From NCBI GenBank assembly GCA_963806325.1, contig CAWDXL010000002.1, positions 128,802 through 192,801 on the forward strand: DNA of 64,000 nt, written 5' to 3'. Positions within the stretch are counted from its first letter, which is position 1; each line of letters begins with the position of its first letter. Positions 1,810 through 32,317 of the stretch are shown here, one piece after another. The DNA comes from Candidatus Parcubacteria bacterium. Lineage in GTDB: Bacteria; Patescibacteriota; Minisyncoccia; Phycocordibacterales; JAKAEA01. A program made the translations under genes and the position numbers. The notes beneath the pieces were generated by a model. It was not told the origin of the DNA, searched no databases, and saw nothing but the letters and a program-made list of their open reading frames with translations.

Positions 1810-1901
1810 ACAATGTAAGACGAAATGGCTAATAATTCTTGCACGTAGTATTATTATACTACAAAAATAGCTCTGCGGTTTATTGGACAGTATCAATCAA
1901 C

Positions 1902-3011
1902 ATGAAAAAGCACTTTGAAAAAATTGCATCATTCTATCAGCGGTATGAGCGGCACATTTCCTCACTTGCGCTTGTCGGCGGATTCGTTTTTGATGCGATC
2001 ACGCTGAAGCGTGTTGATCTTTTTCTTGAAAATTTTTGGGTAGTTATGCATCTTGTGGTAGCGGCAGTTGGCATCATTGCATTAAATTTTATTGAACAGG
2101 AAAAGTCTGCCACCGGCACGAAAGAAAAAAACGAGGTGATGACTCTTCATTTCTGGCTTATTTTTATCGTGCAATTTGCATTTGGAGGGCTTCTGAGTAC
2201 ATTTTTAGTTTTTTATTTCAGAAGCGCGACATCGAGCACCGCGTGGCCGTTTCTTCTGCTGCTCGCTATTATTTTTATTGCCAACGAGGTTTTTAAAAAG
2301 CACTACTCCCGTTTATATTTTCAGATAGGCATGCTCTTTGTCTCCATTTTTTCATTTATGATTTATATCGTACCTGTCATCACGCACACCATTAGTACGA
2401 ATATGTTTATTCTAAGTGGTGCACTGAGCGTGCTTATTCTATGGCTCTACCTTATTTGTCTGCGGTTTATAACGCGGGAAAAGCTTAGACAAGAGCGCTG
2501 GATTCTTATTTCAGGCATTATTGCGATCTATGCTGCTATCAACATTCTTTACTTTACGCATACTATTCCACCATTGCCGCTTTCTCTCAAAGATGCGGGC
2601 GTATACCACTCCATTACTAAGGATGCTGATGGAAATTATGAAGCGGTTTCCGAATCAAAAAATTGGTCAGATTATTTCAGCTTCAATGATCCTGTATACA
2701 ATGAAGTAGTGGGGCAGCCGGTGTATGCGTATAGTGCAGTATTTTTGCCGACTGAATTTAATCTGAATATTGTTCACGTTTGGCAATATTATGACGGTAC
2801 GAAAAAGCGGTGGATCACAGAAAATAAAATCGTACTGCCGGTATCCGGCGGCCGCGATGGGGGATATCGAACCTATACTGAAAAAACTAATCTTGTCTCA
2901 GGTCTATGGAGGGTCAGCGTTGAAACAATGTCGGGACAGTATATCGGCAGGATTCAATTCAATGTACAAATATCAACAGATACGCCAGCACTTTCCACAG
3001 TACAGCTTTAA
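1902..3011 (+). CDS. polytopic membrane protein with soluble C-terminal domain (function unknown)
   Basis: About 6 predicted TM helices followed by a ~150-aa hydrophilic C-terminus. Start chosen at MKKHFEK (ATG 1902). Confidence 0.5.
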   Translation: MKKHFEKIASFYQRYERHISSLALVGGFVFDAITLKRVDLFLENFWVVMHLVVAAVGIIALNFIEQEKSATGTKEKNEVMTLHFWLIFIVQFAFGGLLSTFLVFYFRSATSSTAWPFLLLLAIIFIANEVFKKHYSRLYFQIGMLFVSIFSFMIYIVPVITHTISTNMFILSGALSVLILWLYLICLRFITREKLRQERWILISGIIAIYAAINILYFTHTIPPLPLSLKDAGVYHSITKDADGNYEAVSESKNWSDYFSFNDPVYNEVVGQPVYAYSAVFLPTEFNLNIVHVWQYYDGTKKRWITENKIVLPVSGGRDGGYRTYTEKTNLVSGLWRVSVETMSGQYIGRIQFNVQISTDTPALSTVQL

Positions 3012-5258: not shown

Positions 5259-5348
5259 AACTTGCGCCAGCGCGTGATATGCTCGGCGCCACCTTCAATT
5301 TTGAAGAGCTTCGTATGGCGAGATTGTTTGTAAATAAATAGCATAAAA

Positions 5349-5374
5349 CCTCTCAGATGTTATGAGAGATTTTA
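5349..5374 (+). terminator. weak hairpin + T-tract after helicase gene
   Basis: cctctca-gatgtta-tgagag followed by atttt. The stem is AT-rich. Confidence 0.3.
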
Positions 5375-5411
5375 TGGCTTTGTGTCCAATAATTCTTGAG
5401 CGGTGACTAAA

Positions 5412-7853
5412 CTAGTTTAAAATATGTGATCGAGAAATCGGTCCAAAATATCCTGAAGCCGGTTTTATACCTGCTGCAACCTGGAATTTTATGACAGCGG
5501 CCCTGGTCGCCTGTCCGAAGTATTCAGTTTCGTTGCCCGGCGATCCTCGTCCGGCAGACGCTACGTTAAAACCGTGCAGGTTTAGATATTGTTGAAGAAG
5601 TTTGACGTCCCGGCCAAACATTCCAGTCATAAGATTGCGACTAAAAATCCACACAGGAATTGATGAAGATTCTACTTCGGGTGTAGAGGTGGATATGTGA
5701 GGGCATGGTGCATCTGTAGCGATGTTGTATATGTCTCCTGGTTGGCATACGGGGCCGGTCGCTATACCTAATACTTTTCCTAGTGGAATTGGTGGCGCAT
5801 AATAACCTCCTCCACTGCTTGGAATACCGATCCCTGTGTTTCCACTGTTCACCACAGGCACAGTTGATCCTGAGGCTGCTATGTTTATTGTATAAGGTTG
5901 GGTCGTTGAAGATGTTCCGTTTGTGGTAAGTACATTAAATGTAGAGGTGCCATCTGCGGTGGGCGTGCCTGAGATTAATGCAGAAGAAGAGTTGAGTATC
6001 AGGCCTGCTGGCAGAGTTCCTGACGAGACAGACCATGTGAATGATCCCGTAGCTGTTGTAGAAGCTGTCAATGTTTGGTTGTATGCGGTCCCAACTGTTC
6101 CGCTTGGTAGTGTTGTTGGGACAATAGTTACAGCAGGAACGGGAATTGGCGATACAGGGGGCGTGATTGGCGAAATATTGTGGAGTATATTAGTACCCTG
6201 ATCCATCGTTACAATGCTGACAGAATTGTTCTGTTCTTTTGTTTGAAGATATGAAACAATTTCTTGAAGCATTTGCGGCGTAACACCGTACACTTCTCCA
6301 TTTTGAGCAATAATGTTTGCCGGATCAACATCATGGAATGTAATGACGAGCCACCACTTGTTGGCAATTGCCGTATCGATCCATGATTGTATTGTGCTAA
6401 ATGTTGTTGAAGCGACAGCGCTCTCGCTCTTGAGCAACAGTGGATCGGTGGTAGCGGTATTAAAGCCGACATCAACGGTGCGAGCATTGGTATATCCCGC
6501 AGCACTCACCATCTGCTTAATATTGGAATTATAATCTCCAAACGGATAGGCGATGCCATCCACGGGTGACATGCCAAACGATTCAAGAACAGATCGGGAA
6601 CCGCTTATTTCCTGGGAAGCTGTCGAATCAGAAATTGTTGTAAGATCAAGATCGGGATGCGTTTCAGTGTGTGAATCGATTTCGTTGCCTTCTGCCTGAA
6701 GTGTTTGAAGCTGGGACTCCGTCATGTAATCTTGATATTCTATGAGTGATGGATTGGATACGGTAATCACTCCATTCTGATCTGGGCTTTGAGAAATACT
6801 AATCGGCGTAACGGTATTTCCGGAAATGGTTGGGAGTGTGAAAGAAAAGTTTGCATCCATATTATTTCCGGCGGGAAGCGAGCCGAGCGTCATAGATACC
6901 ACGTCTCCAGCCGGACAATTTCCGGTTTGTGAAATTGAGCAATAATCAAGGCGTAGCGTGCTCGTGGTTGTAGATGTGTAGGTATCGGTAAATGTGTATT
7001 CCTGATATGTTGGATCGGTAAAAATTGCACCGTATGTTTCTACATTTGTAATATTCCCCCAGTGTATAGTAGATGACGCTGTAATAGTACCGGTGGCAAT
7101 TCCAGTGTTTTCAAGAAGGTTGCCGGAAGATGCATCTGTTGCGCTGAGTATGGGATCGGTGATGATATAGTATGTTGCTGGCATATGGGCAGCATTCAAG
7201 ATTGGCCGGGCATTATTGTACTGGGATGTCCACCCATCATCAAACGTAAGTGATACCATTGCCTTTGAAAAAGCCCCTTGGTTTGATGGTGTGTAATTAG
7301 TCAGAGCATAATCTGCTGTGGTCAGGCTGCCATTGGTATTTTGAATGAGATGGAGAACGGTGACAGATACAGCATTGGATGGAGCTGGGAATACTTCCTG
7401 CGGAGTATGGGCCCACGTCCCATTGGTTGAAGGCAGCGTGGCGATTGCATCATACGAAAGCGAACCGTCATTCATTGTCCACTGAGCAATGAGGTAACTT
7501 TCTATGGTTGAATTATATGAATCCGAAAATGAATAAAGATTGTTGCCTGTCACCGCGACGTTCTTAAAATACCATTCTGCCGCTCCGCTTACATAATTGG
7601 ACAAGGTGACTTCTGCACCAACATCTCCGGAGGTCGGTCCTGGTACGGGATAATTATAGGTGGCGGTAGTTGTTCCGTAGCCACCCTGAAACCAGTTGTC
7701 CGGTGTTGTGCTTGCAACAGTTGTGCTTTGCATGTCGGCATTCAATATGAGGTTTCCAGATGCACTGAGTGTGGTTCCATGCGCAAAAAACGGCGCGATA
7801 AAAAATAATATTCCAATAACAGCGGTCGCTCCATTTTTTTGTAATTTTGACAT
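5412..7853 (-). CDS. secreted multi-domain polysaccharide deacetylase (CBM-like N-domain, NodB deacetylase domain, putative-Ig domain, C-terminal peptidoglycan-binding domain)
   Basis: Signal/TM N-terminus. NodB motif 'LTFDDGW'. An Ig-like segment 'FTWSVSSGTLPAGL...ISGTP'. A C-terminal PG_binding_1-like 'LLQQYLNLHGF...GYFGPISR'. Confidence 0.75.
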   Translation of the reverse strand: MSKLQKNGATAVIGILFFIAPFFAHGTTLSASGNLILNADMQSTTVASTTPDNWFQGGYGTTTATYNYPVPGPTSGDVGAEVTLSNYVSGAAEWYFKNVAVTGNNLYSFSDSYNSTIESYLIAQWTMNDGSLSYDAIATLPSTNGTWAHTPQEVFPAPSNAVSVTVLHLIQNTNGSLTTADYALTNYTPSNQGAFSKAMVSLTFDDGWTSQYNNARPILNAAHMPATYYIITDPILSATDASSGNLLENTGIATGTITASSTIHWGNITNVETYGAIFTDPTYQEYTFTDTYTSTTTSTLRLDYCSISQTGNCPAGDVVSMTLGSLPAGNNMDANFSFTLPTISGNTVTPISISQSPDQNGVITVSNPSLIEYQDYMTESQLQTLQAEGNEIDSHTETHPDLDLTTISDSTASQEISGSRSVLESFGMSPVDGIAYPFGDYNSNIKQMVSAAGYTNARTVDVGFNTATTDPLLLKSESAVASTTFSTIQSWIDTAIANKWWLVITFHDVDPANIIAQNGEVYGVTPQMLQEIVSYLQTKEQNNSVSIVTMDQGTNILHNISPITPPVSPIPVPAVTIVPTTLPSGTVGTAYNQTLTASTTATGSFTWSVSSGTLPAGLILNSSSALISGTPTADGTSTFNVLTTNGTSSTTQPYTINIAASGSTVPVVNSGNTGIGIPSSGGGYYAPPIPLGKVLGIATGPVCQPGDIYNIATDAPCPHISTSTPEVESSSIPVWIFSRNLMTGMFGRDVKLLQQYLNLHGFNVASAGRGSPGNETEYFGQATRAAVIKFQVAAGIKPASGYFGPISRSHILN

Positions 7854-7923
7854 GGTATTTGATGGTAATTAATATGTATATAAAATTTCAATGCATGGTA
7901 AATTTTCATTACATTCAATCTCC

Positions 7924-8502
7924 TCATGTTTCGCATAAGGTTGGATGTAAAGGATCCAGTCTATGTGAGCTTGCAAAAAAATCATTGAGTAACGCCATAT
8001 TTTGCCCGTATGCACCAGTATAATTTTTGATGCCAAAATTGTTTGCGAACTGTTGGCGGGAAGAGAATGAATAATCGGTATTGATTGATATTAAATAATT
8101 TATTATCGAATAATTGTATACAGTCGCCCACTTATCAAATGTGATTAATCCGCAATTTGTATTATTGATGATACTGGGGCTGTTTTGAGCTCTGGCGAGG
8201 GGTATTATTTGATTCGGCTGAAAAATGTTGCCAGCAATATTTTTCTCGATTACGGCTCCATATGTATTGATAAATCGAAATGATGAATGGCTATCGAGGA
8301 CGCTTCTATCTACCAGAATAAATGCATTTGTCATGACCATAAGAAACACAATTCCAATTATTGGGTAGCTAAAAATGCTTGCACGCGGAATGCTACTTTG
8401 TGTTTGTGGTTTTCTGAACGGCAGCCAGCTTGAAACTTTGTGTCCTGCAATAACGCAAAGGTGAACAATAACGGAGAGTCCTATAAATGGGGTGAGTGGC
8501 AT
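7924..8502 (-). CDS. hypothetical membrane protein
   Basis: 192-aa ORF with 2 TM segments, lying between the deacetylase and GT2 genes. Confidence 0.4.
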   Translation of the reverse strand: MPLTPFIGLSVIVHLCVIAGHKVSSWLPFRKPQTQSSIPRASIFSYPIIGIVFLMVMTNAFILVDRSVLDSHSSFRFINTYGAVIEKNIAGNIFQPNQIIPLARAQNSPSIINNTNCGLITFDKWATVYNYSIINYLISINTDYSFSSRQQFANNFGIKNYTGAYGQNMALLNDFFASSHRLDPLHPTLCET

Positions 8503-8508
8503 ATATTT

Positions 8509-9537
8509 TTATGATGGTTCAATTATGACTCTGTCCGGACTAAACCAGATAAGATTTTTCCGCCGCAGCACAACCTCCTTGATAAACTGTTCCAGGTATA
8601 CGTATGCATTTATAAACATGAGTATCGTGTAAGGGAATGGCGCGAGAATAAGAAATGGCCGTTTTTCTTTCCATGCAGCCCACATGGCAAATATCATTGC
8701 TACTACAAAGTAGCCGATAAACAACCACATGCCAAACCATAGATTTATAAGAGGCAGGATAAAAATAAGCACTGAAAAAACGAGTCCTTCTGCGTAGATA
8801 AGCGATAATTCAAAGGCCCTGATCGGACGTGTGGCGACAATGCTCCAGTGTTTGACGAGATTTTGCCACCCTCCTCCAAACCAGCGCCTCATCTGGTTTA
8901 TGTAATTCTTAATCGTTGTCGGATCTTGTGTGTATGAAATTGCTTTCTGGTTGTACACTATCCTAAATTGTTTGCGGTGAATCTTGTAGGTAAAGTCGAG
9001 ATCCTCGGTAATTGTGTCATGGTCAAAGGTGATATGCTGATTGAAAAGATCCCGTCGAAAAGCGCTTGCGGCGCCGGGCATGACAAAAATATAATGCATA
9101 TAATTCTGGGCAACTTTATGAATATTTTGTCCTATGACATAATCAAACGCCCTGCAGAGCGTTAACCAATTATAGGGAATACTTTTTACATAGCCTGCGA
9201 CTGCCACAACATCCTTATCGGCAGCAAAGCTTTTCTCAATTTCTTCAGCAAATCTAGTATCAAGAAGCGTATCGGCATCGGTAGTGATGACAATATCTCC
9301 GGAAACAAACTGCATGCCAAACTCTTGGGCACTACTCTTGTTCCCGGTATTCTTTGGCGTTCGTTTTGAAATTATTTTATCGCTGAAGGATGCCAGTATT
9401 TCAGGTGTCCGGTCTCTTGAAGAGTCATCGATAAAAATAATCTCATCAAAAGGGCGCGTTTGATTAAGACATGATTGAATTGAAGCACGAAGAGATTTTT
9501 CTTCGTTGTAGCACGGCACGAGTAAAGATAATTTCAT
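8509..9537 (-). CDS. processive family-2 glycosyltransferase (PgaC/cellulose/chitin-synthase-like)
   Basis: 'LLVPCYNEE', DxD 'TDAD', 'TEDLDFT', and Q(M)RRW, with C-terminal TM helices. Confidence 0.8.
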   Translation of the reverse strand: MKLSLLVPCYNEEKSLRASIQSCLNQTRPFDEIIFIDDSSRDRTPEILASFSDKIISKRTPKNTGNKSSAQEFGMQFVSGDIVITTDADTLLDTRFAEEIEKSFAADKDVVAVAGYVKSIPYNWLTLCRAFDYVIGQNIHKVAQNYMHYIFVMPGAASAFRRDLFNQHITFDHDTITEDLDFTYKIHRKQFRIVYNQKAISYTQDPTTIKNYINQMRRWFGGGWQNLVKHWSIVATRPIRAFELSLIYAEGLVFSVLIFILPLINLWFGMWLFIGYFVVAMIFAMWAAWKEKRPFLILAPFPYTILMFINAYVYLEQFIKEVVLRRKNLIWFSPDRVIIEPS

Positions 9538-9591
9538 ATTGAAAATATATTTTCAGCGAGAAAGAATGGAATTCATAAAAAATTTAAATTT

Positions 9592-9645
9592 AGCTCTACG
9601 ACAAAGACTCCCAACTGACCCATAACTTACAGTCCTGCTACAACT
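9592..9645. repeat. 54-bp direct repeat copy 1 (overlaps stop codon and 3' end of GH26 gene)
   Basis: agctctacgacaaagactcccaactgac...ctgctacaact recurs at 10791..10844 with 3 mismatches. Confidence 0.8.
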
Positions 9646-10697
9646 GATTTGAACGCAGCGAGCGTAGCGGGGCTCGAATTGACAACCCAATCTCCGTCAG
9701 CACCATTTTGATTGAACCAGATCCAGCCCCTCATGTTTGTGTAATTCTTAATATGGGTACCAAGCCCTTCAGTAATCCAATTTGCCTCGGCTGTTCCGGG
9801 GTATGAAGCAGTTGAAAAAATATACATCGGCTTATTAAATGATTGGACCTGATGCACCGCAGTATCAAAAACTTGTCCGAATGTCTGCCATGGGTTGGCA
9901 AAGTTGAAACCGTCAATGCCGACGTAGTCAACATAATCTGAACCGGGGTAGTAATCTGAAAACTGATTACCTGGAATGTTGGGTATCGAAACATTATTAA
10001 AATCAATGGCAAATTTAACGTTGTTGATGCCGTTAAATAAGTTGTGAATATGTATCCATGCTGCTCTAAAGCCATCAGCTGTATTGTTGTTTGTACCATA
10101 TCCCCACGCTTCTTCGTTGAGGTTCATTTCATCAAGTGGAATAAGGATAATCGGAGCATTATATGATTGTGCTGCAGCAGCAAATTGTTTCATATAATTA
10201 TCCTCACTTCCGTTGCTGATGTCATCGTAGCCAAAATTCTGGCTCCCAAAAAATGACAAGCGTTTTACCCTGTTGCCCCACGGTTGCAGATAGATTTGAA
10301 GGGAAGGAGTCATCAAAACCATCAAATGTTGCAACCAAATCCATTTTTTTACCGACCAGTGTCTCAAAGTCTGAGATGCCGTTGGGCTATCACCGACATA
10401 CGCGCCCCACTGCATGTTTGAAGTAGAGGTAGGTATGACGGCTGTGGTGGAAGGAATGTTTTTTAAAATAGTTGAAGAAGATACAATTGATGCACCGCGA
10501 GCGGTTGAAATACTGTGTGTGGAAATTATCGCAGCCGATGATGTGGCAGGGGCTGTACTTATTGTTGCTGGTGACGACGAGAGGGTAGGGGGACGTGATG
10601 TTGATGTCGGATGTTTTTTAAAATTTGAAATCACTATAAACATGACAAGAACAGCAACTACGGCCAAAAATAGCGCCAATAAAAATTTTGCACCCAT
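9627..10697 (-). CDS. membrane-anchored glycoside hydrolase, GH26-like (beta-mannanase family) with Ser/Thr-rich linker
   Basis: N-terminal TM, then an S/T/P-rich linker. The catalytic-domain motifs 'IPLDEMNLNEEAWGYG' and 'VGIDGFN' resemble the GH26 HEMN / nucleophile regions. Confidence 0.55.
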   Translation of the reverse strand: MGAKFLLALFLAVVAVLVMFIVISNFKKHPTSTSRPPTLSSSPATISTAPATSSAAIISTHSISTARGASIVSSSTILKNIPSTTAVIPTSTSNMQWGAYVGDSPTASQTLRHWSVKKWIWLQHLMVLMTPSLQIYLQPWGNRVKRLSFFGSQNFGYDDISNGSEDNYMKQFAAAAQSYNAPIILIPLDEMNLNEEAWGYGTNNNTADGFRAAWIHIHNLFNGINNVKFAIDFNNVSIPNIPGNQFSDYYPGSDYVDYVGIDGFNFANPWQTFGQVFDTAVHQVQSFNKPMYIFSTASYPGTAEANWITEGLGTHIKNYTNMRGWIWFNQNGADGDWVVNSSPATLAAFKSVVAGL

Positions 10698-10790
10698 CCA
10701 ATTTTATTTTTTCATGTGTATTTTGAACCACTCTATCTTGATAGGTTACAACCAAAAAGAGCAGGTGATGGGATATTCATTTGCTCCTCT

Positions 10791-10844
10791 AGCTCTACGA
10801 CAAAGACTCCCAACTGACTTATAACTTACAGCCCTGCTACAACT
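10791..10844. repeat. 54-bp direct repeat copy 2 (upstream of GH26 gene start)
   Basis: Matches 9592..9645 at ~94% identity. It would encode the same ...VVAGL* C-terminus, but no ORF is attached. Confidence 0.8.
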
Positions 10845-10886
10845 TTATTGGACATTTGTACAGTAAAAGTGATATAAATTATCGTC

Positions 10887-12308
10887 TTGAAAGCAAAAAT
10901 TATCTATTCAATGTGTAGTGGTGCAGCCATTGGTATGTGTATCGGTGTTTTTGCTGCAATTTTTATGCCAAGCATATTGTATGCCGCTGCCACAAGTACG
11001 ATTGTAAACTTAAACAATCCAGGATTTGAAAATAGTGCTTTGCATGATCCAACAAAAGCATTGGGCTGGCAAAATTTTGGAGATGGTTATACCCGTTCCT
11101 CTGAAGCTGCTCATACGGGAAATTGGAGTATAAAGCTTATGAATTCTGGCGAAGCCGCAACGAGCGGTGCATATGAGCGTATCAATCTTCATCAGACTAC
11201 GCCCGAGCCCGTTTTTATTGGCGGTTTTATAAAGGGTTTGAATATTTCCTTGACACCAGGCAGCACATTTGGTGCTAGTTTGTATGTTGAAATTCATTAT
11301 ACGGATGGCACAATTGTCAGCAGAAATTCTCTTGCAAACCAGGGAACTTTTGACTGGCGATGGATTGGGCTCAATACAAGCTCGGCGATTGTCACAAAAA
11401 CGGCGTCAACAAGCTACAACAAGCCCATTGATTATATATTTATCGTGCCAGCGCTCATACATGCTTCCGGTACCGCATATTTCGATGATATATCAGTTCA
11501 AGAGTTTGTCCCGACTCAAAGTGCTCTAACGCTTATGTTTGATGATGGAAATACAAGCGACTATACAATTGCGAAGCCAATACTTGATCAGTATGGACTT
11601 CCAGGCACCTCCGCCATCATTACAAGCTATATAAATAAATTCCCATTTCTTAGCCTTGATCAGATAAAAGCATTAGCAAATGATGGATGGGAAATCGTTT
11701 CCCATACCGTGACACATCCAAACCTTGGCATGGTTACTTCCGACCAAGCGGAGACAGAATTTAGGGATTCGAAAGCAGCTTTGGAATCAGATGGTTTCGA
11801 TATAGATTCAATCGCATTTCCATTTGGAGCCTACTCAAGTGATGTCTTGGCGCAAAGTGAAAATTACTATATATCTGCCCGAAGCTTTGAAGACGGATAC
11901 AATCCCCAGGGTTCATTCCCATATGAAATTAGAATTCAAAAAATAGTAGCATCCACGACAGTTGCCGATGTCCAAAACTGGGTTGAACAAGCTCAGACAA
12001 ATAAGCAATGGCTTATCATTGTAACTCACCTCATCAGCGGGTCGGGAAGTAATGTGTACCATGTGTCGCCACAGATGTTTGAATCAATGATGGAGGCAGT
12101 CCACAACAGCGGCATCAAGGTGGTTACATATAACGAGGGTATCAAAGAATTTGCCGTCCCAAATCAAAACAATATTGAAAATGTTCCACTAGGCGATACT
12201 CAGGGGGCAGGAAGTTCGATTGATGTGCGGAATATAATTCTTGTTGCAAGCGGATGCGGCGCAGTGATCATCGGTGCCGTAATTATCTTTTACAAAAAAT
12301 ATTTTTAA
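10887..12308 (+). CDS. secreted CBM-like + NodB polysaccharide deacetylase, C-terminal TM anchor
   Basis: Signal peptide and 'LTLMFDDGNTSDY'. The N-domain is paralogous to 17576.. ('GAYERI.L.QT..EPVFIGG'). Confidence 0.75.
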   Translation: MKAKIIYSMCSGAAIGMCIGVFAAIFMPSILYAAATSTIVNLNNPGFENSALHDPTKALGWQNFGDGYTRSSEAAHTGNWSIKLMNSGEAATSGAYERINLHQTTPEPVFIGGFIKGLNISLTPGSTFGASLYVEIHYTDGTIVSRNSLANQGTFDWRWIGLNTSSAIVTKTASTSYNKPIDYIFIVPALIHASGTAYFDDISVQEFVPTQSALTLMFDDGNTSDYTIAKPILDQYGLPGTSAIITSYINKFPFLSLDQIKALANDGWEIVSHTVTHPNLGMVTSDQAETEFRDSKAALESDGFDIDSIAFPFGAYSSDVLAQSENYYISARSFEDGYNPQGSFPYEIRIQKIVASTTVADVQNWVEQAQTNKQWLIIVTHLISGSGSNVYHVSPQMFESMMEAVHNSGIKVVTYNEGIKEFAVPNQNNIENVPLGDTQGAGSSIDVRNIILVASGCGAVIIGAVIIFYKKYF

Positions 12309-12376
12309 TAGTTCTTAAAAGAAGGGGAGGGTTTGTATTCAACAACGAAGAATGAGGTGCCTACTTCTCTCTCCTA

Positions 12377-12414
12377 GGGATACGTCGCACAATATATCTT
12401 TTGCGACGTATCCC
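12377..12414. terminator. 13-bp perfect-stem hairpin between convergent genes
   Basis: gggatacgtcgca-N12-tgcgacgtatccc. Confidence 0.5.
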
Positions 12415-12439
12415 TATATTGGTGCGTATACCATATCAT

Positions 12440-13003
12440 TTATTTTATGCTCATATATTTTTCTTTCAACTCTTTTCGAAGAATCTTATAATTTGGCAGT
12501 GTGGTACCAACTAACCCCCAAAATTTTTTTGAGTGATTGAAGTGTTTGATATGACAGAGTTCATGCACCACCACATAATCGGCAAGTTCCTGAGGAATCT
12601 TAATCAGTCCGTAATTAAAACTGAGGTTGCCGGTCTTGGTGCAGCTTCCCCACCGTGATTTTTGATTTCTGACATGTACTGTGCCTATGCTGAAATTATA
12701 AAATTCGTTAAAATATTTTACTCGTTCTTCTAAAAACTTAAGGGCTGTGCGTTTATTCTGTAAAAAATCTTGATGGGACTGGTCAAGTATCGTTGTATCC
12801 TCAAGCCTTGTTTTCATTGCAGCTTGGTGGTGAAGGATCCACAATTCTTTGCTTTTAACAAACATATGAGCTATTAAGGATGGGGTGCGAGGCGGCAGCT
12901 TAACTACGACCCCGCCAAAACGATTAATAGTGATGCTCATTCTGCGTGTTCGCGCATTTCTTTTAAGGGAGTATTCCATGTTTGGTTCCCTTTTTAGTGC
13001 CAA
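12440..13003 (-). CDS. DUF45/YgjP-family (SprT-like) metal-dependent hydrolase
   Basis: 'WGSC...LSFNYGL' and 'DYVVVHELCHIKHFNHSKKFW' (HExxH). Confidence 0.75.
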   Translation of the reverse strand: MALKREPNMEYSLKRNARTRRMSITINRFGGVVVKLPPRTPSLIAHMFVKSKELWILHHQAAMKTRLEDTTILDQSHQDFLQNKRTALKFLEERVKYFNEFYNFSIGTVHVRNQKSRWGSCTKTGNLSFNYGLIKIPQELADYVVVHELCHIKHFNHSKKFWGLVGTTLPNYKILRKELKEKYMSIK

Positions 13004-13881
13004 TTAATTTGAGAAGTTGTTACAATTTCTTTCCATGGGCCTGGGGGTACTTCTGAGGCAGCTACAAATTGCCAATCAACTTTGTTCTCGTCGTTATTAA
13101 GGCCGTTGAATCCCAAACAATCACGAAGCGCGGGAGAAACATCCATGCCCGCATTATTAGCTTCCTGGCTTGCTGGAGCTGCTGTGCCAAATACGTATTG
13201 ATAATCATTGTAAACGTACGGCCCTGAGTCTTCAATTTGTCCATAGCACACAGCTCCGTCTTTTATGATTTTAACCCATCTATTTTTCATCATTGATTCT
13301 GTTGGTGCCCATGTCTGGCTATTGGCCCAGGGCACGACTTGATATGCATTTGGTCTTCTGTTGCCATTGTCATCAAAATCATCATACGGCAAGTCTAAAT
13401 AAAATGGGTTCTGCTTCGGAGTAAACTGCGCAGGAAAATACCCATTACGGTTTATATAATCATCATAGCCTCCGTAATCTTTTTCCCAATCATCGTCCCA
13501 AGCACTGATAGAATTGTCTTCTGAGGAGCCGTTGCCCACGGGTTCTCCTACCCAAAAAACTGTCGCAGTTATATTTTTGTGGAGCGAATAGGCTGAAGAT
13601 TGTGTTTGATCTAGTGGTGGGGTCGTTGCAGGCGCTGTGCTATTACTGCTCTCTATATTCTCGGGTGTCGGGGATTGAGATGCTGTGGCGGACAATGAAG
13701 CGCTGTTAGTTTTTTGGTTTAAATTCGTCTGAGTGGCTGGCACCGCAGAATGCATGACTTCAGTAGTATCATGAGCAGTTGGGGATGGTGAAAAAAAGTG
13801 ATTGTGAATTGCCAGAATACTTCCCCCAATAAGAACAATAGCAAGCGTGCAGGAAAGAATAATGGAAATATTTTTTTTCAT
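12994..13881 (-). CDS. secreted hypothetical protein with S/T/P-rich linker
   Basis: Signal/TM 'MKKNISIILSCTLAIVLIGG', a low-complexity linker, and a conserved-looking C-domain ('TVFWVGEP', 'NPFYLDLPYDDF'). Confidence 0.45.
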   Translation of the reverse strand: MKKNISIILSCTLAIVLIGGSILAIHNHFFSPSPTAHDTTEVMHSAVPATQTNLNQKTNSASLSATASQSPTPENIESSNSTAPATTPPLDQTQSSAYSLHKNITATVFWVGEPVGNGSSEDNSISAWDDDWEKDYGGYDDYINRNGYFPAQFTPKQNPFYLDLPYDDFDDNGNRRPNAYQVVPWANSQTWAPTESMMKNRWVKIIKDGAVCYGQIEDSGPYVYNDYQYVFGTAAPASQEANNAGMDVSPALRDCLGFNGLNNDENKVDWQFVAASEVPPGPWKEIVTTSQINWH

Positions 13882-13951
13882 GATAGAGCACGGAGGGGTT
13901 GACCTGTGAGTCAACACACTGTAGATTAGTTAAATAATAAACCGAAATATT

Positions 13952-15235
13952 ATGCATGTCAAACAACACAAAATGGCTGTCATTGGTCTCGGATACGTGG
14001 GTTTGCCGCTCGCCGTACTCGGCCTTAAGAAAAAATTTGATGTTATTGGCATTGATACCAACGACGCTAAGCTCAAGAAAATACAACAAGGCAAAAGCCC
14101 CTTTGCTGACGGCGAAATAGATATTGATTTGAAGAGGTATCCCCTTCCCGTGACGTCCGATGCTGCTGCGATAAAAAATGTAGACACTGTCATAATATGT
14201 GTGCCGACGCCTGTGTATGAAGACTATCTGCCGGACCTTCGTCCTGTGGAAAGCGTGGCTCACTCTATCGGTAAACACTTGAAAAAAGGTCACCTCGTAG
14301 TACTGGAATCGACGGTTAACCCCGGCATTTCTGAAGATATCCTTTTGCCAATTCTTGAAAAGGAAAGCGGACTTATAGGCGGTAAAGATTTTTATCTTGC
14401 GCATTGTCCAGAACGGATCAATCCTGGCGATAAGCGCTGGAATGTGAGCAATATACCTCGTGTGGTCGGTAGTCTTGAAAAAAAAGGTTTGGAACGGGCG
14501 GTTGCATTCTATAAGTCTCTCATTGATGCCGAAATAAAACCTATGGGTTCTATCAAAGAAGCTGAAGCAGTAAAAATTACTGAGAACTCGTTTCGCGATA
14601 TTAATATTGCGTTTGTAAACGAGCTCGCTATGTCATTTTCAAAGCTTGGCATTGATGTTGTGAATGTTATCGAAGGAGCCGCTACCAAGCCATTTTCGTT
14701 CATGCCCCACTACCCCGGCTGCGGCGTGGGTGGCCACTGCATTCCTGTTGATCCGTACTACCTTATTGAGTATGCAAAAAAGAATGGCTTCAACCACAAA
14801 TTTTTAAAAGCTGCCCGCACAATCAACAACAACATGCCAGAGTTTACTATTGCTCAGCTCAATATTCTCCTGAAAGAGAAGGATATAAGTTTGAAGAATT
14901 CTACAGTTGCTGTACTCGGCATCTCCTATAAAGCAGGAGTGGGCGATGATCGTGAAAGTCCAAGCCATGAAATTGTTCGAAAGCTTAAGAAGCTTGGAGT
15001 GCGTGTAGTAACGTATGACCCATATATTCTTCATGCGTCCACCGCAAAAACAATGCGTGAAGCGCTCACTGGAGCTGATGCAGTCATTATTGCTACCGCC
15101 CATGGAATTTTTAAAAAGTTAACGCCGCAAAAGCTTGAATCATTTGGCGTGAAGGTTGTTATTGATGGAATGAATTGTCTCGAAAAAGATAAGTTTATCA
15201 AGCACAGATTTGCCTATAGAGGCATCGGGAGGTAG
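13952..15235 (+). CDS. nucleotide-sugar 6-dehydrogenase (UDP-N-acetylhexosamine dehydrogenase clade, WecC/WbpA-like)
   Basis: 'MAVIGLGYVGLPLAV' and 'GCGVGGHCIPVDPYYL'. The GGHCIP motif is typical of the UDP-GlcNAc/ManNAc dehydrogenase clade rather than Ugd. Confidence 0.8.
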   Translation: MHVKQHKMAVIGLGYVGLPLAVLGLKKKFDVIGIDTNDAKLKKIQQGKSPFADGEIDIDLKRYPLPVTSDAAAIKNVDTVIICVPTPVYEDYLPDLRPVESVAHSIGKHLKKGHLVVLESTVNPGISEDILLPILEKESGLIGGKDFYLAHCPERINPGDKRWNVSNIPRVVGSLEKKGLERAVAFYKSLIDAEIKPMGSIKEAEAVKITENSFRDINIAFVNELAMSFSKLGIDVVNVIEGAATKPFSFMPHYPGCGVGGHCIPVDPYYLIEYAKKNGFNHKFLKAARTINNNMPEFTIAQLNILLKEKDISLKNSTVAVLGISYKAGVGDDRESPSHEIVRKLKKLGVRVVTYDPYILHASTAKTMREALTGADAVIIATAHGIFKKLTPQKLESFGVKVVIDGMNCLEKDKFIKHRFAYRGIGR

Positions 15236-15255
15236 TTAAGCAAAAACATCATCAC

Positions 15256-16212
15256 ATGAAAATTCTTATCACGGGTGCCGCCGGTTTTCTCGGCTCAAAT
15301 GTATGCGAAAAGCTTCTTGCTGAAGGAAATGAGGTGGTTGCCGTGGATAATTTATCTACAGGTGATGTCGGCAATATCAGTGAATTTAAGAAAAATAGAA
15401 GTTTTAAATTTTATGAAATGGGTGTTGAAACTCCTGAGTTCATGAAGCTCTTTTTTAATGGTTCTGCGTATTCTTTTGAACGGGTATACAATCTTGCTTG
15501 TCCGACCGGCGTGCCAAATATAGAAAAAATGGGCGAAGAAATGATGGATACATGTTCAATAGGTACAAAAAATGTACTGAGGGTTGCATTAAAAAATAAA
15601 GCAAAGTTTCTTCTTACCAGCAGCTCTGAGGTATATGGCGATCCTGAAAAATTTCCTCAAGATGAATTATATACAGGAAATGTTGATCCGCGCGGACCGC
15701 GGGCAAATTATGAAGAGGGCAAACGTTTTGCAGAGACACTCACTGTGCTTTTTTCATCCAAATATAATCTTGAAGCAAAAATAGTCAGGCTTTTTAACGT
15801 ATATGGTCCATACATGAGTATGAAAGATCAGCGCGTTATTCCTCGTTTTGTCCAACAGGCCTTGAGAGGAGAATCACTTACGGTTCAAGATAATAATGCA
15901 TTGCGTACTATGTGCTACGTGAGCGATATTGTTAACGGCCTCATGCTTGTTATGGAAAAAGGAGAAAAAGGCGGAGTATATAATCTTGGAAGTGATCTTG
16001 AGCTCACCATGAAAGAGCTGGCCGAGAAAGTTATTATGCTTACAAATTCAAAAAGTTCTATCATGATGACCCCGGGCTACGCACATGATCATAAGCGCCG
16101 CATGCCGGATCTCACAAGGATTAAAAATCTTGGCTGGAACTACACAGTATCTCTTAATGAAGGCATCCGATATACAGTCAAAAGTTTTCAGGAGCGGATG
16201 GAAAATCGCTAA
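15256..16212 (+). CDS. NAD-dependent UDP-sugar-acid decarboxylase (UXS/UXNAcS-like epimerase/dehydratase family)
   Basis: 'ILITGAAGFLGSN', 'SSSEVYGDP', and 'YEEGKRFAETL' (UXS 'YDEGKR'). Confidence 0.7.
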   Translation: MKILITGAAGFLGSNVCEKLLAEGNEVVAVDNLSTGDVGNISEFKKNRSFKFYEMGVETPEFMKLFFNGSAYSFERVYNLACPTGVPNIEKMGEEMMDTCSIGTKNVLRVALKNKAKFLLTSSSEVYGDPEKFPQDELYTGNVDPRGPRANYEEGKRFAETLTVLFSSKYNLEAKIVRLFNVYGPYMSMKDQRVIPRFVQQALRGESLTVQDNNALRTMCYVSDIVNGLMLVMEKGEKGGVYNLGSDLELTMKELAEKVIMLTNSKSSIMMTPGYAHDHKRRMPDLTRIKNLGWNYTVSLNEGIRYTVKSFQERMENR

Positions 16213-16227
16213 ACATAAAAAATAAAT

Positions 16228-17463
16228 ATGCCCCTTGTTTTTGCTGTTATCATTGTATTTATTGGATTGTGGGGAATGAATTTCACCTTCTGGGGGGCGA
16301 TTGGTCTCTGCCGATATATTTCGTTGCGTATCTATTCTCCTCAGGTTTTTGCTGCCAATATTTCTGGTGCGGATGGTTTACTTACTAAAAGTGACGTGGC
16401 AATTATTATTCCCGCTCACCAAGAAGAGTTGGTGATAGAAAATACTCTTAAGGGTGCCTTACGACTTCTTCCCCCTAATCAAATTTTCATTATTACTTCG
16501 GATTTCTCAAAAAAAGACAGGACTGCCGACATTGCACGTTCATTCGGTGTAAACGTTGTTGAGCTTCCTCCTCCGCTGGCAAAAGCGCGCAAACTGCAGT
16601 CGGCTGTAAATCAGATACAGATGTCGGGTGTATTTAAAGCTGTTCTTTTCGTGGATGCCGATACTATTCTTGCAGATGATTATTTAGATAAGGCTCTTCC
16701 CTATTTTAATGATCCGGAAGTTGTGGCGGTTGCCGGCCATGCCACCACATTGTGGGAACCGAACAAAAATAGCTGGTTTAACAGATTTATACTTTCCTAC
16801 CGCGAACGTATTTATTTTTTTGGCCAGCTTTTTATAAAATTTGGCCAATCCTGGAAGTATATAAATGTATGCCAAATCGTGCCGGGTTTTGCCAGCATCT
16901 ACCGGAGTTCAATTTTGTCAAAAATAAATATTGATCCCGGAGGACTTGTTATCGAGGATTTTAACATGACGTTTGAAGTTCACCATGGCCACCTTGGTAA
17001 AATTATTTATTCGCCGGAAATTAAGGCTTATACCCAAGATCCCGACAATTTGAAGGACTATTTTAAACAGATAAAACGGTGGAACCTTGGTTTCTGGCAA
17101 ACGGTATTTCGGCATGGATACTGGACTAGTTTTTTCTGGTCGGCATTATTTTTCTCCATATTTGAGGTGTGTCTCAGTTCTATTATTTTACTGCTACTCC
17201 CCTTCTATATTTTTCTCATTTTCTTAAGCTACGGTGTTGGCGATATCCCCTATCAATACATTCTTCTTTTGAAGGGTCTTTTTATTGCTGATTATGCACT
17301 AAGTGTTGTAATAGGTGTTATCAAGAATCGACCGGCCTATTTTATATACGGTCTTGGTTTTTTATTTATGCGTTTTATTGATGCGATAGCCTACATGTAT
17401 AGTATTCCCAAAGCAATTTTTACCACGTCAACCGGCGCATGGGCGAGCCCGACTCGGCGATAA
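16228..17463 (+). CDS. processive family-2 glycosyltransferase, multi-TM
   Basis: 'VAIIIPAHQEE', DxD 'FVDADTIL', 'IEDFNMTFE', and 'QIKRW', with TM helices at both ends. Confidence 0.7.
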   Translation: MPLVFAVIIVFIGLWGMNFTFWGAIGLCRYISLRIYSPQVFAANISGADGLLTKSDVAIIIPAHQEELVIENTLKGALRLLPPNQIFIITSDFSKKDRTADIARSFGVNVVELPPPLAKARKLQSAVNQIQMSGVFKAVLFVDADTILADDYLDKALPYFNDPEVVAVAGHATTLWEPNKNSWFNRFILSYRERIYFFGQLFIKFGQSWKYINVCQIVPGFASIYRSSILSKINIDPGGLVIEDFNMTFEVHHGHLGKIIYSPEIKAYTQDPDNLKDYFKQIKRWNLGFWQTVFRHGYWTSFFWSALFFSIFEVCLSSIILLLLPFYIFLIFLSYGVGDIPYQYILLLKGLFIADYALSVVIGVIKNRPAYFIYGLGFLFMRFIDAIAYMYSIPKAIFTTSTGAWASPTRR

Positions 17464-17575
17464 TAGAGGCTTGAAAAAGTATTGCTTAAATTAAATTTAT
17501 ATTGTAAAGTTTGCACGTCACGAAATAATAGTTGAGAGATTCCGTTATTACTGCTGTTAATTAATTTAGCACCAC

Positions 17576-19811
17576 ATGAAACAAAATTTTGCAACACGCG
17601 CCACTATTTTCAGTTTATGTATTTTTGCTTTTGCTATGTATGCGATATTGAATGCAGCAACTGCTCAAGCTCTCACTTCAACTGAACTTACAACCAATGG
17701 CACTTTTGAACAGGCTGGCGCTACGGCTACCACCGCTCTTGGGTGGCAGCCTTTTAATAATGGCTATACTCGCACATCAGCAGGCGCCCATTCTGGAAGC
17801 TGGGGTATTTCGCTTACCAATACAAATACCTCGACCCTTTCGGGCGCCTATGAGCGAATTGATCTCAATCAGACAAAAGTTGAACCGGTATTTATCGGCG
17901 GCTACGTAAAAGGTTCAAATATTTCGATGGCTTCGGGAAGCTATTATGGCGCCAGTATATATGCAGAAATTCATTTTACTGATGGGACTGTTGCATATTG
18001 GAACTCTATTCCAAATGAAGGAACATTTAATTGGCGTTGGGTCGGCTTCAATACAGGTTCCGGTTTTACTGTCACCAATGAAACCATTCCGGTAACCAAA
18101 CCAATCGCCTATATATTTGTTGTGCCTATGCTCGGTGATGCCTCAGGTACTGCTTACTTTGATGTATATTACAGTTCAGCAGTTTTCAGCTACTCAGCCT
18201 GCTCTTACTCTCATGTTTGATGATGGCAATACAACAGATGCCACAATTGCTATGCCAACCATGAATCAGTATCACTTTGTAGGCACGAGTGCTATTGTTA
18301 CTAGTGATATTGGTTTGGCTTCTGGTGGAATTGCTGAGGATGGTGATATGACTCTCGCTCAAATCAAGAGTCTTGCTGCTGATGGCTGGGAAATTGCGTC
18401 ACATACTGTTGATCATCCTGATCTCACCACACTCACGGCTGCCCAGGTAAATACAGAGCTTCAATCTTCAAAAGCGACCCTTGTTGCTGATGGATTTACG
18501 GTAAATAATATTGCATATCCATATGGTGCCTATAATGCTGCTATTAATGCAAATGCTGCAGAATATTACACTTCGGCACGCACATTTGAAGAAGGATATA
18601 ATCCAACAGGAGCATATCCATACGAGATTAAGGTTCAAAAAGTCATTGCCACTACTACTGTCGCCGATGTTCAAGGTTGGATAGCAGAAGCTAAAGCTGA
18701 AAATGCATGGCTTGTCATTGTTACCCACCTAATCAACGCTACAGGTACTGACGATTATCATATTGATCCAACGACATTTAAATCTATTATTGGGGCCGTA
18801 GCTCAAAGTGGTATTCGGGTCATTACATACAATCAAGGTGTAACCCAATACGCTGTTTCTCCAGGACAAGGTGTGGTTGTGGCACCTCCTCCAGTTACCA
18901 CCACTCCGCTTGCTGGTTCATGTTCTGCTGCACCAGCCACCACGACGACTGGCACGCCGATTGTATGGACAGCTACAGCTACAGGAGGCACCGGTACGTA
19001 CACATATTCATGGACCGGCAGCAACAGTTTGACCGGAACAACCTCAAGTGTATCTAAGACATATACTTCCGCCGGCGCAGAGACTGCTCAAGTTGCTATT
19101 ACTTCAGGCACCTCAACGATTACATCAACCTGCACTGCCACAGTCACAGCGTCTTCAACACCTAAAACTAAGCCTGTAACAACCCTTACAGCAAATCCAG
19201 CTTCGGTAGCTCCGGGAGGAACTTCAACACTTACCTGGACAGTTAATAATGGTGGAGACACAACAACAACCTGTACGGCAAGCGGTGGATGGAGCGGATC
19301 ACTTTCAGTATCCGGCGGTTCAAAATCAACTGGTGCTCTCGCTACAACAACTTCATATACAATTACGTGTACAAATTCAGCCGGCTCAACAACAAGTACT
19401 GTTGCAGTCACCGTGACTTCTTCTACAGATGCCAACTGCCCGACAGGAACAATGACGCTCGCACAGGCAAAAGCTGCATTATCAAGCAACACAGTCAAGG
19501 TGTCATTTGCAGCCAAGGGTTCTCAGGTGACGGGAACGATTATCAATAACTCAGGCTGCGGATTCCCAGCCAGTCAGATGTCATACTCTGCATATAATCA
19601 GACGCTGGCCGATGACGTACTCTACAACAGTACCTCAGTCTCTACTGTTGGCCCTCACACAACAAAGACCTTCACAACCTCTATTCCTACGTGCATGTCT
19701 CAGACGTACATCTTTTACGGCCAAGGCCCAGCGCAGCTTACTGCTTCAGGTCTTAGTTCATCACTGACGTCTTTTACTAATGCTTCAGGAAATTATTGTA
19801 AAAAATCCTAA
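17576..19811 (+). CDS. secreted CBM-like + NodB polysaccharide deacetylase + Thr/Ser-rich Ig/PKD-like repeats; reading frame broken by a 1-nt indel near 18164
   Basis: ORFs 17576..18220 and 18117..19811 are collinear with paralog 10887..12308. The junction reads '..SGTAYFD|d|ITVQQFSATQPALTLMFDDG' if one base is removed from 'gatgTatatt'. Confidence 0.7.

Positions 19812-30510: not shown

Positions 30511-32317
<1,807 letters not shown>

Follow-up and report, generated by a model that had tools for sequence, protein, structure and literature searches.

In the pga, ica and pel systems, the operon of the polysaccharide synthase typically also encodes a hydrolase and a deacetylase. In the icaADBC operon of Staphylococcus and the pgaABCD operon of E. 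coli, the synthase is a family 2 glycosyltransferase (GT2) with a QxxRW motif that also exports the chain, a small protein with two transmembrane (TM) helices is encoded right after it, an extracellular deacetylase of carbohydrate esterase family 4 (CE4) follows, and a glycoside-hydrolase activity belongs to the system. The holdfast and Nod systems first synthesise a GlcNAc-type glycan and afterwards de-N-acetylate it, which in the holdfast tunes adhesion. The Candidate Phyla Radiation (CPR), or Patescibacteria, makes up a large share of bacterial diversity and its cultivated members live attached to other cells; to our knowledge, almost nothing is known of their surface chemistry, and no description of a PgaC-like system in CPR was found in the searchable literature. 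Here we analyse a stretch of 64,000 nucleotides from a Candidatus Parcubacteria genome (assembly GCA_963806325.1, contig CAWDXL010000002.1, positions 128,802 to 192,801; hereafter, the window), in which positions 5412 to 19811 hold genes that resemble the ica and pga systems in several of these respects. The locus joins two independently conserved modules, each combining a GT2 synthase with a CE4 deacetylase, and we take these, with some reserve, to be probable machinery for two synthase-dependent extracellular polysaccharides.

Two conserved synthase-deacetylase modules

Open reading frame (ORF) listing, translation, and Pfam and NCBIfam scans of the window revealed two co-directional gene blocks with three genes between them. 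Module 1 lies on the minus strand and encodes, in order of transcription, a protein related to glycoside hydrolase family 26 (GH26; 9627..10697), the synthase GT2a (8509..9537, 342 aa), a 2-TM protein (7924..8502, 192 aa) and the deacetylase CE4-A (5412..7853, 813 aa), with intergenic gaps of 89, 6 and 70 nt. Module 2 lies on the plus strand and encodes an NDP-sugar 6-dehydrogenase (13952..15235), a short-chain dehydrogenase/reductase (SDR) of the UDP-xylose synthase (UXS) type (15256..16212), the synthase GT2b (16228..17463, 411 aa) and the deacetylase CE4-C (17576..19811), whose gene is frameshifted and whose product has 744 aa once repaired; the gaps are 20, 15 and 112 nt. A third deacetylase gene, CE4-B (10887..12308, plus strand; 473 aa, or 465 aa from the ATG at 10911), is an extra paralog outside both modules and is transcribed divergently from the GH26-like gene. 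A preliminary description, made from the sequence alone, had seen here a single, triplicated exopolysaccharide system; two distinct, separately conserved modules accompanied by an extra paralog take its place. That description did not list the 2-TM protein, the dehydrogenase, the SDR and a protein with a double-psi beta-barrel (DPBB) fold.

The conservation of the two modules was studied separately. For module 2, a genome scan with an alignment of the deacetylases that carry a carbohydrate-binding module (CBM/CE4) gave 18 loci, namely 15 from metagenome-assembled genomes (MAGs) of Patescibacteria, one Parachlamydiales contig and two distant CE4-only matches from unclassified bacteria. Their sources include MAGs of Saccharibacteria, Doudna-, Taylor- and Andersenbacteria and Paceibacterota, relatives that agree with the earlier supposition of an organism with a minimal genome, here a reduced-genome CPR bacterium. 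The window proteins were compared by tblastn with the 16 close loci and the metagenome locus L001 (17 loci in all). A GT2b ortholog (36-62% identity) stands beside the CBM/CE4 gene in 12 of the 17 loci, two more having weaker GT2 matches, and a UXS-like gene (44-66% identity) adjoins GT2b in 8/17. The L001 locus holds both CE4-B-like and CE4-C-like copies, which indicates that their duplication is old. GT2a, the GH26-like protein, the 2-TM protein and CE4-A were not found by tblastn in these module 2 loci. Module 1 is conserved around the orthologs of GT2a, where neighbours were counted as distinct loci around GT2a homologs plus one further gene context (P0045). A 2-TM homolog lies directly downstream of GT2a in 10 distinct loci and in the P0045 context, a CE4-A-like protein adjoins it in 6 distinct loci and in the P0045 context, and a GH26-like gene adjoins it in 7 loci; the order in P0045 is GH26, a 513-aa protein, GT2a, a 194-aa protein and a CE4/He_PIG protein. 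The comparison of synteny proposed in the preliminary description thus recovers the pair of module 2 in most of the loci compared and module 1 around GT2a, and the CE4, GT2 and GH26 assignments made there are all borne out in a conserved locus.

Both synthases display the features of processive membrane GT2 enzymes of the BcsA/PgaC/NodC/HAS type, that is, a GT2 fold, the D, DxD, (T)ED and QxxRW motifs, and TM helices after the catalytic domain, as had been supposed from their QxxRW motifs. GT2a (Pfam GT2 match, E 3e-29; Glyco_transf_21 match, E 2.4e-6) lacks N-terminal TM helices and has about three at its C-terminus, and its motifs DDS37, DAD87, TED177 and QMRRW215 include counterparts of the DxD, TED and QxxRW of BcsA, with which they align. 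GT2b has one N-terminal TM helix, C-terminal TM helices and the motifs DAD143, IED and QIKRW281. For both proteins the best NCBIfam model is PgaC_IcaA (TIGR03937, an equivalog), with scores below its cut-off of 422.3 bits: 130.7 bits for GT2a and 56.1 bits, over the full length, for GT2b. GT2a has more than 120 homologs; the best 120 listed are 62-79% identical, and those with a name belong to Paceibacterota, Falkowbacteria and Magasanikbacteria. This identity may be high for CPR proteins, and the conservation suggests a core envelope function or a recent spread. In some genomes a second GT2a paralog (~51-52% identity) stands in tandem, the GT2a loci noted being L026, L028, L034 and L037. The 2-TM protein, whose gene starts 7 nt past the GT2a stop, has two N-terminal TM helices and matches neither Pfam nor, at E<=0.01, any NCBIfam model; it may be a partner of the synthase, IcaD/PgaD-like in position and topology only.

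The first two genes of module 2 may bear on the donor of GT2b. The dehydrogenase is a member of the nucleotide-sugar dehydrogenases (TIGR03026, 402.9 bits against a cut-off of 189.8), and the more specific equivalogs (UDP-ManNAc dehydrogenase, TviB) score below their cut-offs. Its matches in the Protein Data Bank (PDB) are UDP-ManNAc dehydrogenase 4r16 (263 bits), Cap5O (224 bits) and UDP-Glc dehydrogenases (136 bits or less), and it is 37% identical to the UGlcNAcDH of Bacillus cereus. On these similarities it is assigned to the UDP-N-acetyl-hexosamine clade. The SDR matches human UXS1 with 214 bits (E 3e-62), whereas epimerases and dehydratases reach 129 bits at most, and is ~34% identical to B. 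cereus UXNAcS; it is taken to be a UXS-type decarboxylase, a relative of the UDP-uronate decarboxylases, whose substrate may be either UDP-GlcA or UDP-GlcNAcA. In B. cereus, the pair UGlcNAcDH and UXNAcS makes UDP-N-acetyl-xylosamine (UDP-XylNAc; PMC5078965). The presence of a UDP-N-acetylhexosamine (HexNAc)-type dehydrogenase together with a UXS-type decarboxylase in module 2 suggests a donor other than plain UDP-GlcNAc, which could be UDP-N-acetylhexosaminuronic acid (UDP-HexNAcA), UDP-XylNAc or UDP-Xyl.

The extracellular proteins

The extracellular (non-GT) proteins of the locus all begin with a hydrophobic signal or anchor segment. Three of them bear a CE4 domain, with scores against Pfam PF01522 of 77.9, 67.7 and 64.5 bits, all above the cut-off of 23.1; the best NCBIfam model for the three CE4 domains is HfsH (62-68 bits against a cut-off of 400). 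The preliminary description had grouped them as three paralogs with one common N-terminal domain. All three do have CE4, but only CE4-B and CE4-C are close paralogs (52% identity over 428 aa, E 4e-154, BLAST), and the N-domain motifs and the TLMFDDGNT motif on which the grouping relied occur in these two and are absent from CE4-A, which has SLTFDDGWTS as its MT1 motif. The diversity of C-terminal anchors was described correctly: He_PIG and PG_binding_1 domains in CE4-A, a TM helix (445-463) in CE4-B and a Thr-rich tail in CE4-C, where the PKD_4 match is weak (E 0.03).

CE4-B is made up of a signal peptide, a beta-sandwich resembling CBM family 16 (CBM16; ~40-208), the CE4 domain (210-420) and the C-terminal TM anchor; CE4-C likewise has a signal peptide, a CBM16-like domain and a CE4 domain ahead of its tail. 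Residues D219, D220, H273, H277 and H381 are invariant across 18 CE4-B homologs, which keeps the metal triad and the catalytic Asp and His; the motif-3 Arg, canonical in CE4, is replaced by Ala in the CE4-B/C family. The N-domain of CE4-B has no Pfam or NCBIfam match, and a sequence-profile search of the PDB gave nothing significant (E>=0.76). An AlphaFold2 model built from 18 homologs (predicted local distance difference test, pLDDT, 79.5) was compared with known structures by Foldseek. The N-half matches CBM16 (2zey, E 8.5e-11, TM-score 0.68), and also CBM70 and CBM61, while the C-half matches CE4 esterases and deacetylases. In the model, the fold of the carbohydrate-binding-like domain suspected earlier is CBM16-like, although its sequence is not recognised as a member by Pfam or PDB profiles. 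The domain is rare (271 proteins at E≤1e-3 among 1.84 billion representatives, in an exhaustive search) and is found as one copy or as tandem copies in proteins of 115-2,300 aa; in a scan for partner domains, the other proteins with this module mostly showed no Pfam domains. Over both domains, the best Foldseek match of CE4-B is the turret head protein of Haloferax tailed virus 1 (HFTV1; 8qpg, E 1.1e-18); an esterase of Arthrobacter phage Qui and gp673 of Bacillus phage G (E ~1e-24) are further two-domain matches. The combination of a jelly roll with CE4 is thus a recurrent architecture in virion or tail-associated proteins.

CE4-A is built differently, with a signal peptide, a jelly-roll-like N-domain of its own type (A-type), a split CE4 domain, a He_PIG Ig-like domain and a PG_binding_1 wall anchor. 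Its CE4 motifs are FDDG, HTETH, PFGDY and TFHD, and the domain shares 32-35% identity with its counterparts in CE4-B and CE4-C (BLAST); CE4-A belongs to a different CE4 family. Its N-domain has no Pfam or NCBIfam match and no significant sequence similarity to that of CE4-B/C (BLAST E 0.002). The hhalign probability between the CE4-A and CE4-B N-domain families is 5%, by which an N-domain common to three paralogs is ruled out at the sequence level. A profile of the CE4-A N-domain finds CBM4 and CBM16 modules as its top matches among PDB sequences, with weak values (E 0.02-0.08), and from such hints a common CBM4/16 fold class for the CE4-A and CE4-B N-domains is plausible. An insert of ~140 aa (residues 236-376, window 6726-7148) interrupts the CE4 domain of CE4-A and has no Pfam or NCBIfam match. 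It starts with NLLEN, resembling the start of the A-type N-domain, and relatives (L025, L028) have extra N-domain copies in tandem or in the same place; the insert and the extra copies look like nested or repeated jelly-roll modules.

The GH26-like protein consists of an N-terminal TM helix, a Ser/Thr/Pro linker and a barrel homologous to the characterised lichenase CtLic26A (PDB 2bvd, E 3.6e-29, residues 94-355), while the Pfam GH26 match is marginal (20.1 bits against a cut-off of 20.2). Of the two glutamates of the GH26 retaining mechanism, the acid/base (E109 of CtLic26A) is retained within PLDEMN and the nucleophile is absent, the position of E222 being occupied by Ser (IFSTAS) in the window protein and in 6/6 aligned CPR homologs. 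The preliminary description of this protein as a GH26-like hydrolase thus holds for its kinship to CtLic26A; the ORF is partly out of frame, and the loss of the nucleophile leaves its hydrolase activity in doubt. Ser at this position extends across the CPR GH26-like clade (the window and loci L021-L025, L028 and L029), and the GH26 domain of L021 carries a fused peptidoglycan-binding segment. The missing nucleophile might be explained by substrate-assisted catalysis, with an N-acetylated sugar polymer as the substrate.

Frameshifts and surroundings of the locus

Two genes of the locus are broken in this assembly. CE4-C, previously given as a single ORF over 17576..19811, is in fact two ORFs (17576-18220 and 18117-19811), and the single-ORF reading is rejected by a frameshift at 18165. 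Removal of the extra T at this position restores the frame, GTAYFDDITVQQF…LTLMFDDGNT, which matches CE4-B; the public annotation (P0025) contains the C-terminal 549-aa fragment only. In the GH26-like ORF, an indel on either side puts codons ~105-152 (~48 codons, window ~10239-10382) out of frame. The alternative frame of this stretch reads SDFETLVGKKMDLVATFDGF…LVIFWEP, and once the indels at about 10382 and 10238 are repaired the protein aligns end to end with six CPR homologs. Three further minus-strand genes of the window are split: HisRS is broken into three ORFs (53043-54433), DnaK breaks off at residue 519 of a ~600-residue profile, the rest lying in another frame (55656-57570), and a fused ABC exporter appears as overlapping TM-domain and nucleotide-binding-domain ORFs (30511-32317). 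Since essential genes are among those hit, the indels (~7 in 64 kb, those of CE4-C and the GH26-like gene included) are most likely assembly or sequencing errors, and the CE4-C and GH26-like genes are probably intact in the organism. In related metagenome loci, GT2b is split in L005 (4732-5855), GT2a in L035 (6320-7325) and a phosphoglucomutase in L001 (1810-3092), from which it appears that such frameshift-like breaks are common in these CPR assemblies.

Besides CE4-B, two genes lie between the modules. One encodes a YgjP-like metallopeptidase unrelated to the glycan genes (12440..13003, minus strand). The other, transcribed divergently from the dehydrogenase gene, encodes an anchored 307-aa protein (12994..13917, minus strand), a possible accessory protein composed of a TM anchor, a Ser/Thr/Pro linker and a ~200-aa C-terminal DPBB domain. 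This protein has no Pfam or NCBIfam match and 2,293 homologs at E<=1e-5, the best 120 listed being ~50-74% identical and coming from CPR and Chloroflexota MAGs. Homologs of the domain are often fused to PG_binding_1, SH3_3 or SLH, and a 71%-identical one stands between GT2b and the CE4 gene in a Doudnabacteria locus (L006). In Foldseek, the AlphaFold2 model of the domain (pLDDT 87) matches kiwellin (E 3.9e-4), followed by barwin-like proteins, cerato-platanin, expansins and a viral chitosanase. It is probably an uncharacterised family of domains that act on walls or glycans.

Housekeeping genes flank the locus, with a Pif1 helicase and a DUF2914 protein on one side and MgsA, a LexA-like peptidase and a dcw-type wall cluster on the other; the remainder of the window contains no other glycan genes. 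The DUF2914 membrane protein (1839-3011, plus strand) has a 49%-identical ortholog directly upstream of the CE4-B ortholog in L001 (8889-10004) and may be a further conserved neighbour. A terminator-like hairpin of 14 pairs with a T-rich tail (5342..5376, minus strand), found by a consensus scan only, lies just past the CE4-A stop and is the likely end of the module 1 operon. It is the single good hairpin among the 14 terminator-like sites of the window, a number without excess over shuffled sequence (14.0), and the 54 promoter-like sites from a consensus scan are near chance (40.9 ± 7.3 in shuffled sequence). Neither the tRNA nor the Rfam scan of the window gave a match.

Proposed function, alternatives and known systems

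Domain identities, catalytic motifs, membrane or secretion topology and conserved neighbourhoods are observed, and from them we infer how the two modules may work. Module 1 would be a minus-strand operon running from 10697 to 5412. GT2a, being PgaC/IcaA-like, would polymerise a UDP-sugar, most likely of the HexNAc type, at the cytoplasmic face, whatever its linkage, and the chain would pass through a channel formed by the C-terminal helices of GT2a, probably with the help of the 2-TM protein. Outside the membrane, the wall-anchored CE4-A would take off part of the acetyl groups, be they N- or O-linked, and the membrane-tethered GH26-like protein would trim or release the chain. Module 2 would be a plus-strand operon running from 13952 to 19811, in which the dehydrogenase and the UXS-type decarboxylase make a special donor (UDP-HexNAcA, UDP-XylNAc or UDP-Xyl) whose sugar GT2b polymerises and exports. 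The CBM16-like/CE4 proteins would bind this product and de-acetylate it, CE4-C on an Ig-like stalk and CE4-B at the membrane via its C-terminal helix. The outcome would be a surface glycan that has lost part of its acetyl groups and is more cationic and adhesive; a role for it in host attachment is plausible.

Several observations weigh against this interpretation. The chemistry of the products is not readable from sequence, and the PNAG, NodBC and HfsH equivalog models all remain far below their cut-offs. PNAG is the biofilm polymer poly-N-acetylglucosamine, beta-1,6-linked and partly de-N-acetylated. Not only the synthases but also the deacetylases fall outside the PNAG families, with best scores of 38.2 bits for IcaB (cut-off 248.35) and 33.9 bits for PgaB (321.9); the NodC and NodB models reach 48 and 37 bits, with cut-offs of 550 and 240. 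GT2b has no PDB sequence match, the SDR is nearer to true UXS than to UXNAcS, and the dehydrogenase is adjacent in only 2 of the 17 related loci. The GH26-like clade, devoid of its nucleophile, may not be a hydrolase, and two genes of the locus are frameshifted in this assembly. Finally, the PG_binding_1 domain of CE4-A would also fit a peptidoglycan substrate, and the jelly-roll and CE4 architecture is also found on virions, its presumed targets there being the glycans of another cell (bioRxiv 10.1101/2024.12.09.627619).

This last point leads to a reading in which the secreted CBM-like/CE4, GH26-like and DPBB proteins bind and remodel the surface glycans of a host and the GT2 genes are mere neighbours; the targets could be peptidoglycan, exopolysaccharide (EPS) or S-layer glycans, and the purpose attachment or nutrient scavenging. 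The HFTV1 turret head protein, which is the best match of CE4-B over both domains, combines a galactose-binding-like domain with a Zn-binding deacetylase and has been proposed to bind and de-acetylate host glycans (bioRxiv 10.1101/2024.12.09.627619); the matches to the phage Qui esterase and to gp673 of phage G point in the same direction, as does a study of Nealsonbacteria that suggests CE4 action on the EPS of other organisms (bioRxiv 10.1101/2022.04.20.488981). Yet CE4-A and CE4-B are anchored to the wall or membrane of the producer itself, and two CE4 families are each repeatedly linked to a cognate GT2, one of them also to nucleotide-sugar enzymes, across distant CPR lineages, so that this reading seems unlikely. 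This repeated linkage of GT2 and CE4, seen in two unrelated CE4 families, also speaks most strongly against a second reading. There the CE4 proteins would belong with the PgdA/PdaC-type peptidoglycan N-deacetylases and would modify the cell's own wall, for example for lysozyme resistance, and the GT2 proteins would make unrelated envelope glycans or glycolipids, for instance as processive glycosyl-diacylglycerol synthases. The basis of this reading is the PG_binding_1 domain of CE4-A, the presence of BC1960, PdaC and SpPgdA among the Foldseek matches of the CE4-B domain, the Glyco_transf_21 match of GT2a and the cell-wall cluster just downstream (MurG, FtsW, a MraY-type glycosyltransferase and a D-Ala-D-Ala carboxypeptidase). 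However, acetylxylan esterases are equally good in fold similarity, the NCBIfam PgdA model gives only 21-25 bits against a cut-off of 400, and peptidoglycan deacetylases are not usually found in conserved operons with QxxRW synthases, glycoside hydrolases and UXS-type genes. Taken as a whole, including the part assigned to the GT2 proteins, this reading is improbable.

The frameshifts raise the further question of whether the locus is decaying, with CE4-C and the GH26-like gene as genuine pseudogenes and the system partly non-functional. The single-base insertion at 18165, the two indels of the GH26-like gene and the public annotation of a mere CE4-C fragment would be expected in that case, but the breaks in HisRS, DnaK and the fused ABC exporter are of the same kind, about 7 indels in 64 kb are typical of assembly or sequencing error, and the sequence flanking each indel is otherwise well conserved. 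There is thus little reason to believe in decay, and two polysaccharide modules remain the favored interpretation.

A bolder extension of this interpretation, which we regard as speculative and rather doubtful in its entirety, is that Patescibacteria have their own, so far undescribed, lineage-wide machinery for surface polysaccharides, in which both modules make a cationic coat for the adhesion of epibiont to host. Module 1 would then be an ica-like core made up of GT2a (unusually conserved, at 62-79% identity, from one CPR class to another), its 2-TM partner and a multi-CBM wall-anchored CE4, and module 2 would polymerise a rare donor of the pentosamine or uronic type, for instance UDP-XylNAc, the product being de-acetylated by the CBM16-like/CE4 proteins; the nucleophile-less GH26 clade may cleave a HexNAc polymer by substrate-assisted catalysis.

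Annotation describes the products of both modules as no more than generic glycosyltransferases, deacetylases or hypothetical proteins, and the modules are concrete candidates for the polymer that coats CPR cells. The locus also contains proteins outside current family models, such as the GH26 clade without its nucleophile, the rare CBM16-like module on CE4 that is also found on virions, and the large DPBB family. If the modules do produce adhesive glycans of HexNAc or pentosamine that are de-acetylated in part, they would offer a direct way into epibiont attachment.

The comparison with known systems reveals both likenesses and differences. The HFTV1 turret head protein and the phage "esterases" have the same domain order as the CPR proteins, with a galactose-binding-like or CBM-like sandwich followed by a CE4 domain with its metal site; unlike these virion proteins (~15-20% identity), the CPR proteins are cellular, bear a signal peptide and show genetic linkage to a synthase. 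CtLic26A (the GH26 lichenase domain of Clostridium thermocellum CelH) shares homology with the GH26-like protein over the whole barrel as well as the equivalent of the acid/base Glu109, whereas the CPR protein has Ser in place of Glu222, is anchored to the membrane by its N-terminal helix and Ser/Thr/Pro linker, and has a GT2 synthase as its genetic partner where CtLic26A has the cellulosome. In the UDP-XylNAc pathway of B. cereus, a UDP-HexNAc-type 6-dehydrogenase gene also stands beside a UXS-family decarboxylase gene near glycosyltransferase genes (PMC5078965); identity to the CPR enzymes is modest (~37% and ~34%), the CPR SDR is closer to eukaryotic UXS1, and module 2 adds a QxxRW synthase and a CBM/CE4 deacetylase. 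HfsH of Caulobacter, despite being the best NCBIfam model for all three CE4 domains, scores far below its cut-off, and the HfsH and NodB/NodC systems have no CBM-like module, unlike the CPR deacetylases. A link to the essential EPS genes of Southlakia (SEML1_0081-0083) was rejected, since those form a Wzx/Wzy-type cluster, a different system.

The closest parallel is with the ica and pga operons, and the order of GT2a, the 2-TM protein and CE4-A corresponds to icaA-icaD-icaB. Nevertheless, the 2-TM protein has no detected similarity to IcaD or PgaD, GT2a is devoid of the N-terminal TM helices of the ica and pga synthases, and the CPR locus contains neither an IcaC-type acyltransferase nor a PgaA porin. 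Its hydrolase is GH26-like instead of GH153 or GH20, its CE4 proteins carry CBM-like, Ig-like and peptidoglycan-binding modules, and it has a second module with its own nucleotide-sugar enzymes. The PNAG-type system of the preliminary description is thus retained in its logic (GT2, CE4 and glycoside hydrolase, PgaC_IcaA as the best named model, and the ica-like gene order) and abandoned as a family assignment, all PNAG cut-offs being missed: the modules probably work like PNAG systems without belonging to the PNAG family.

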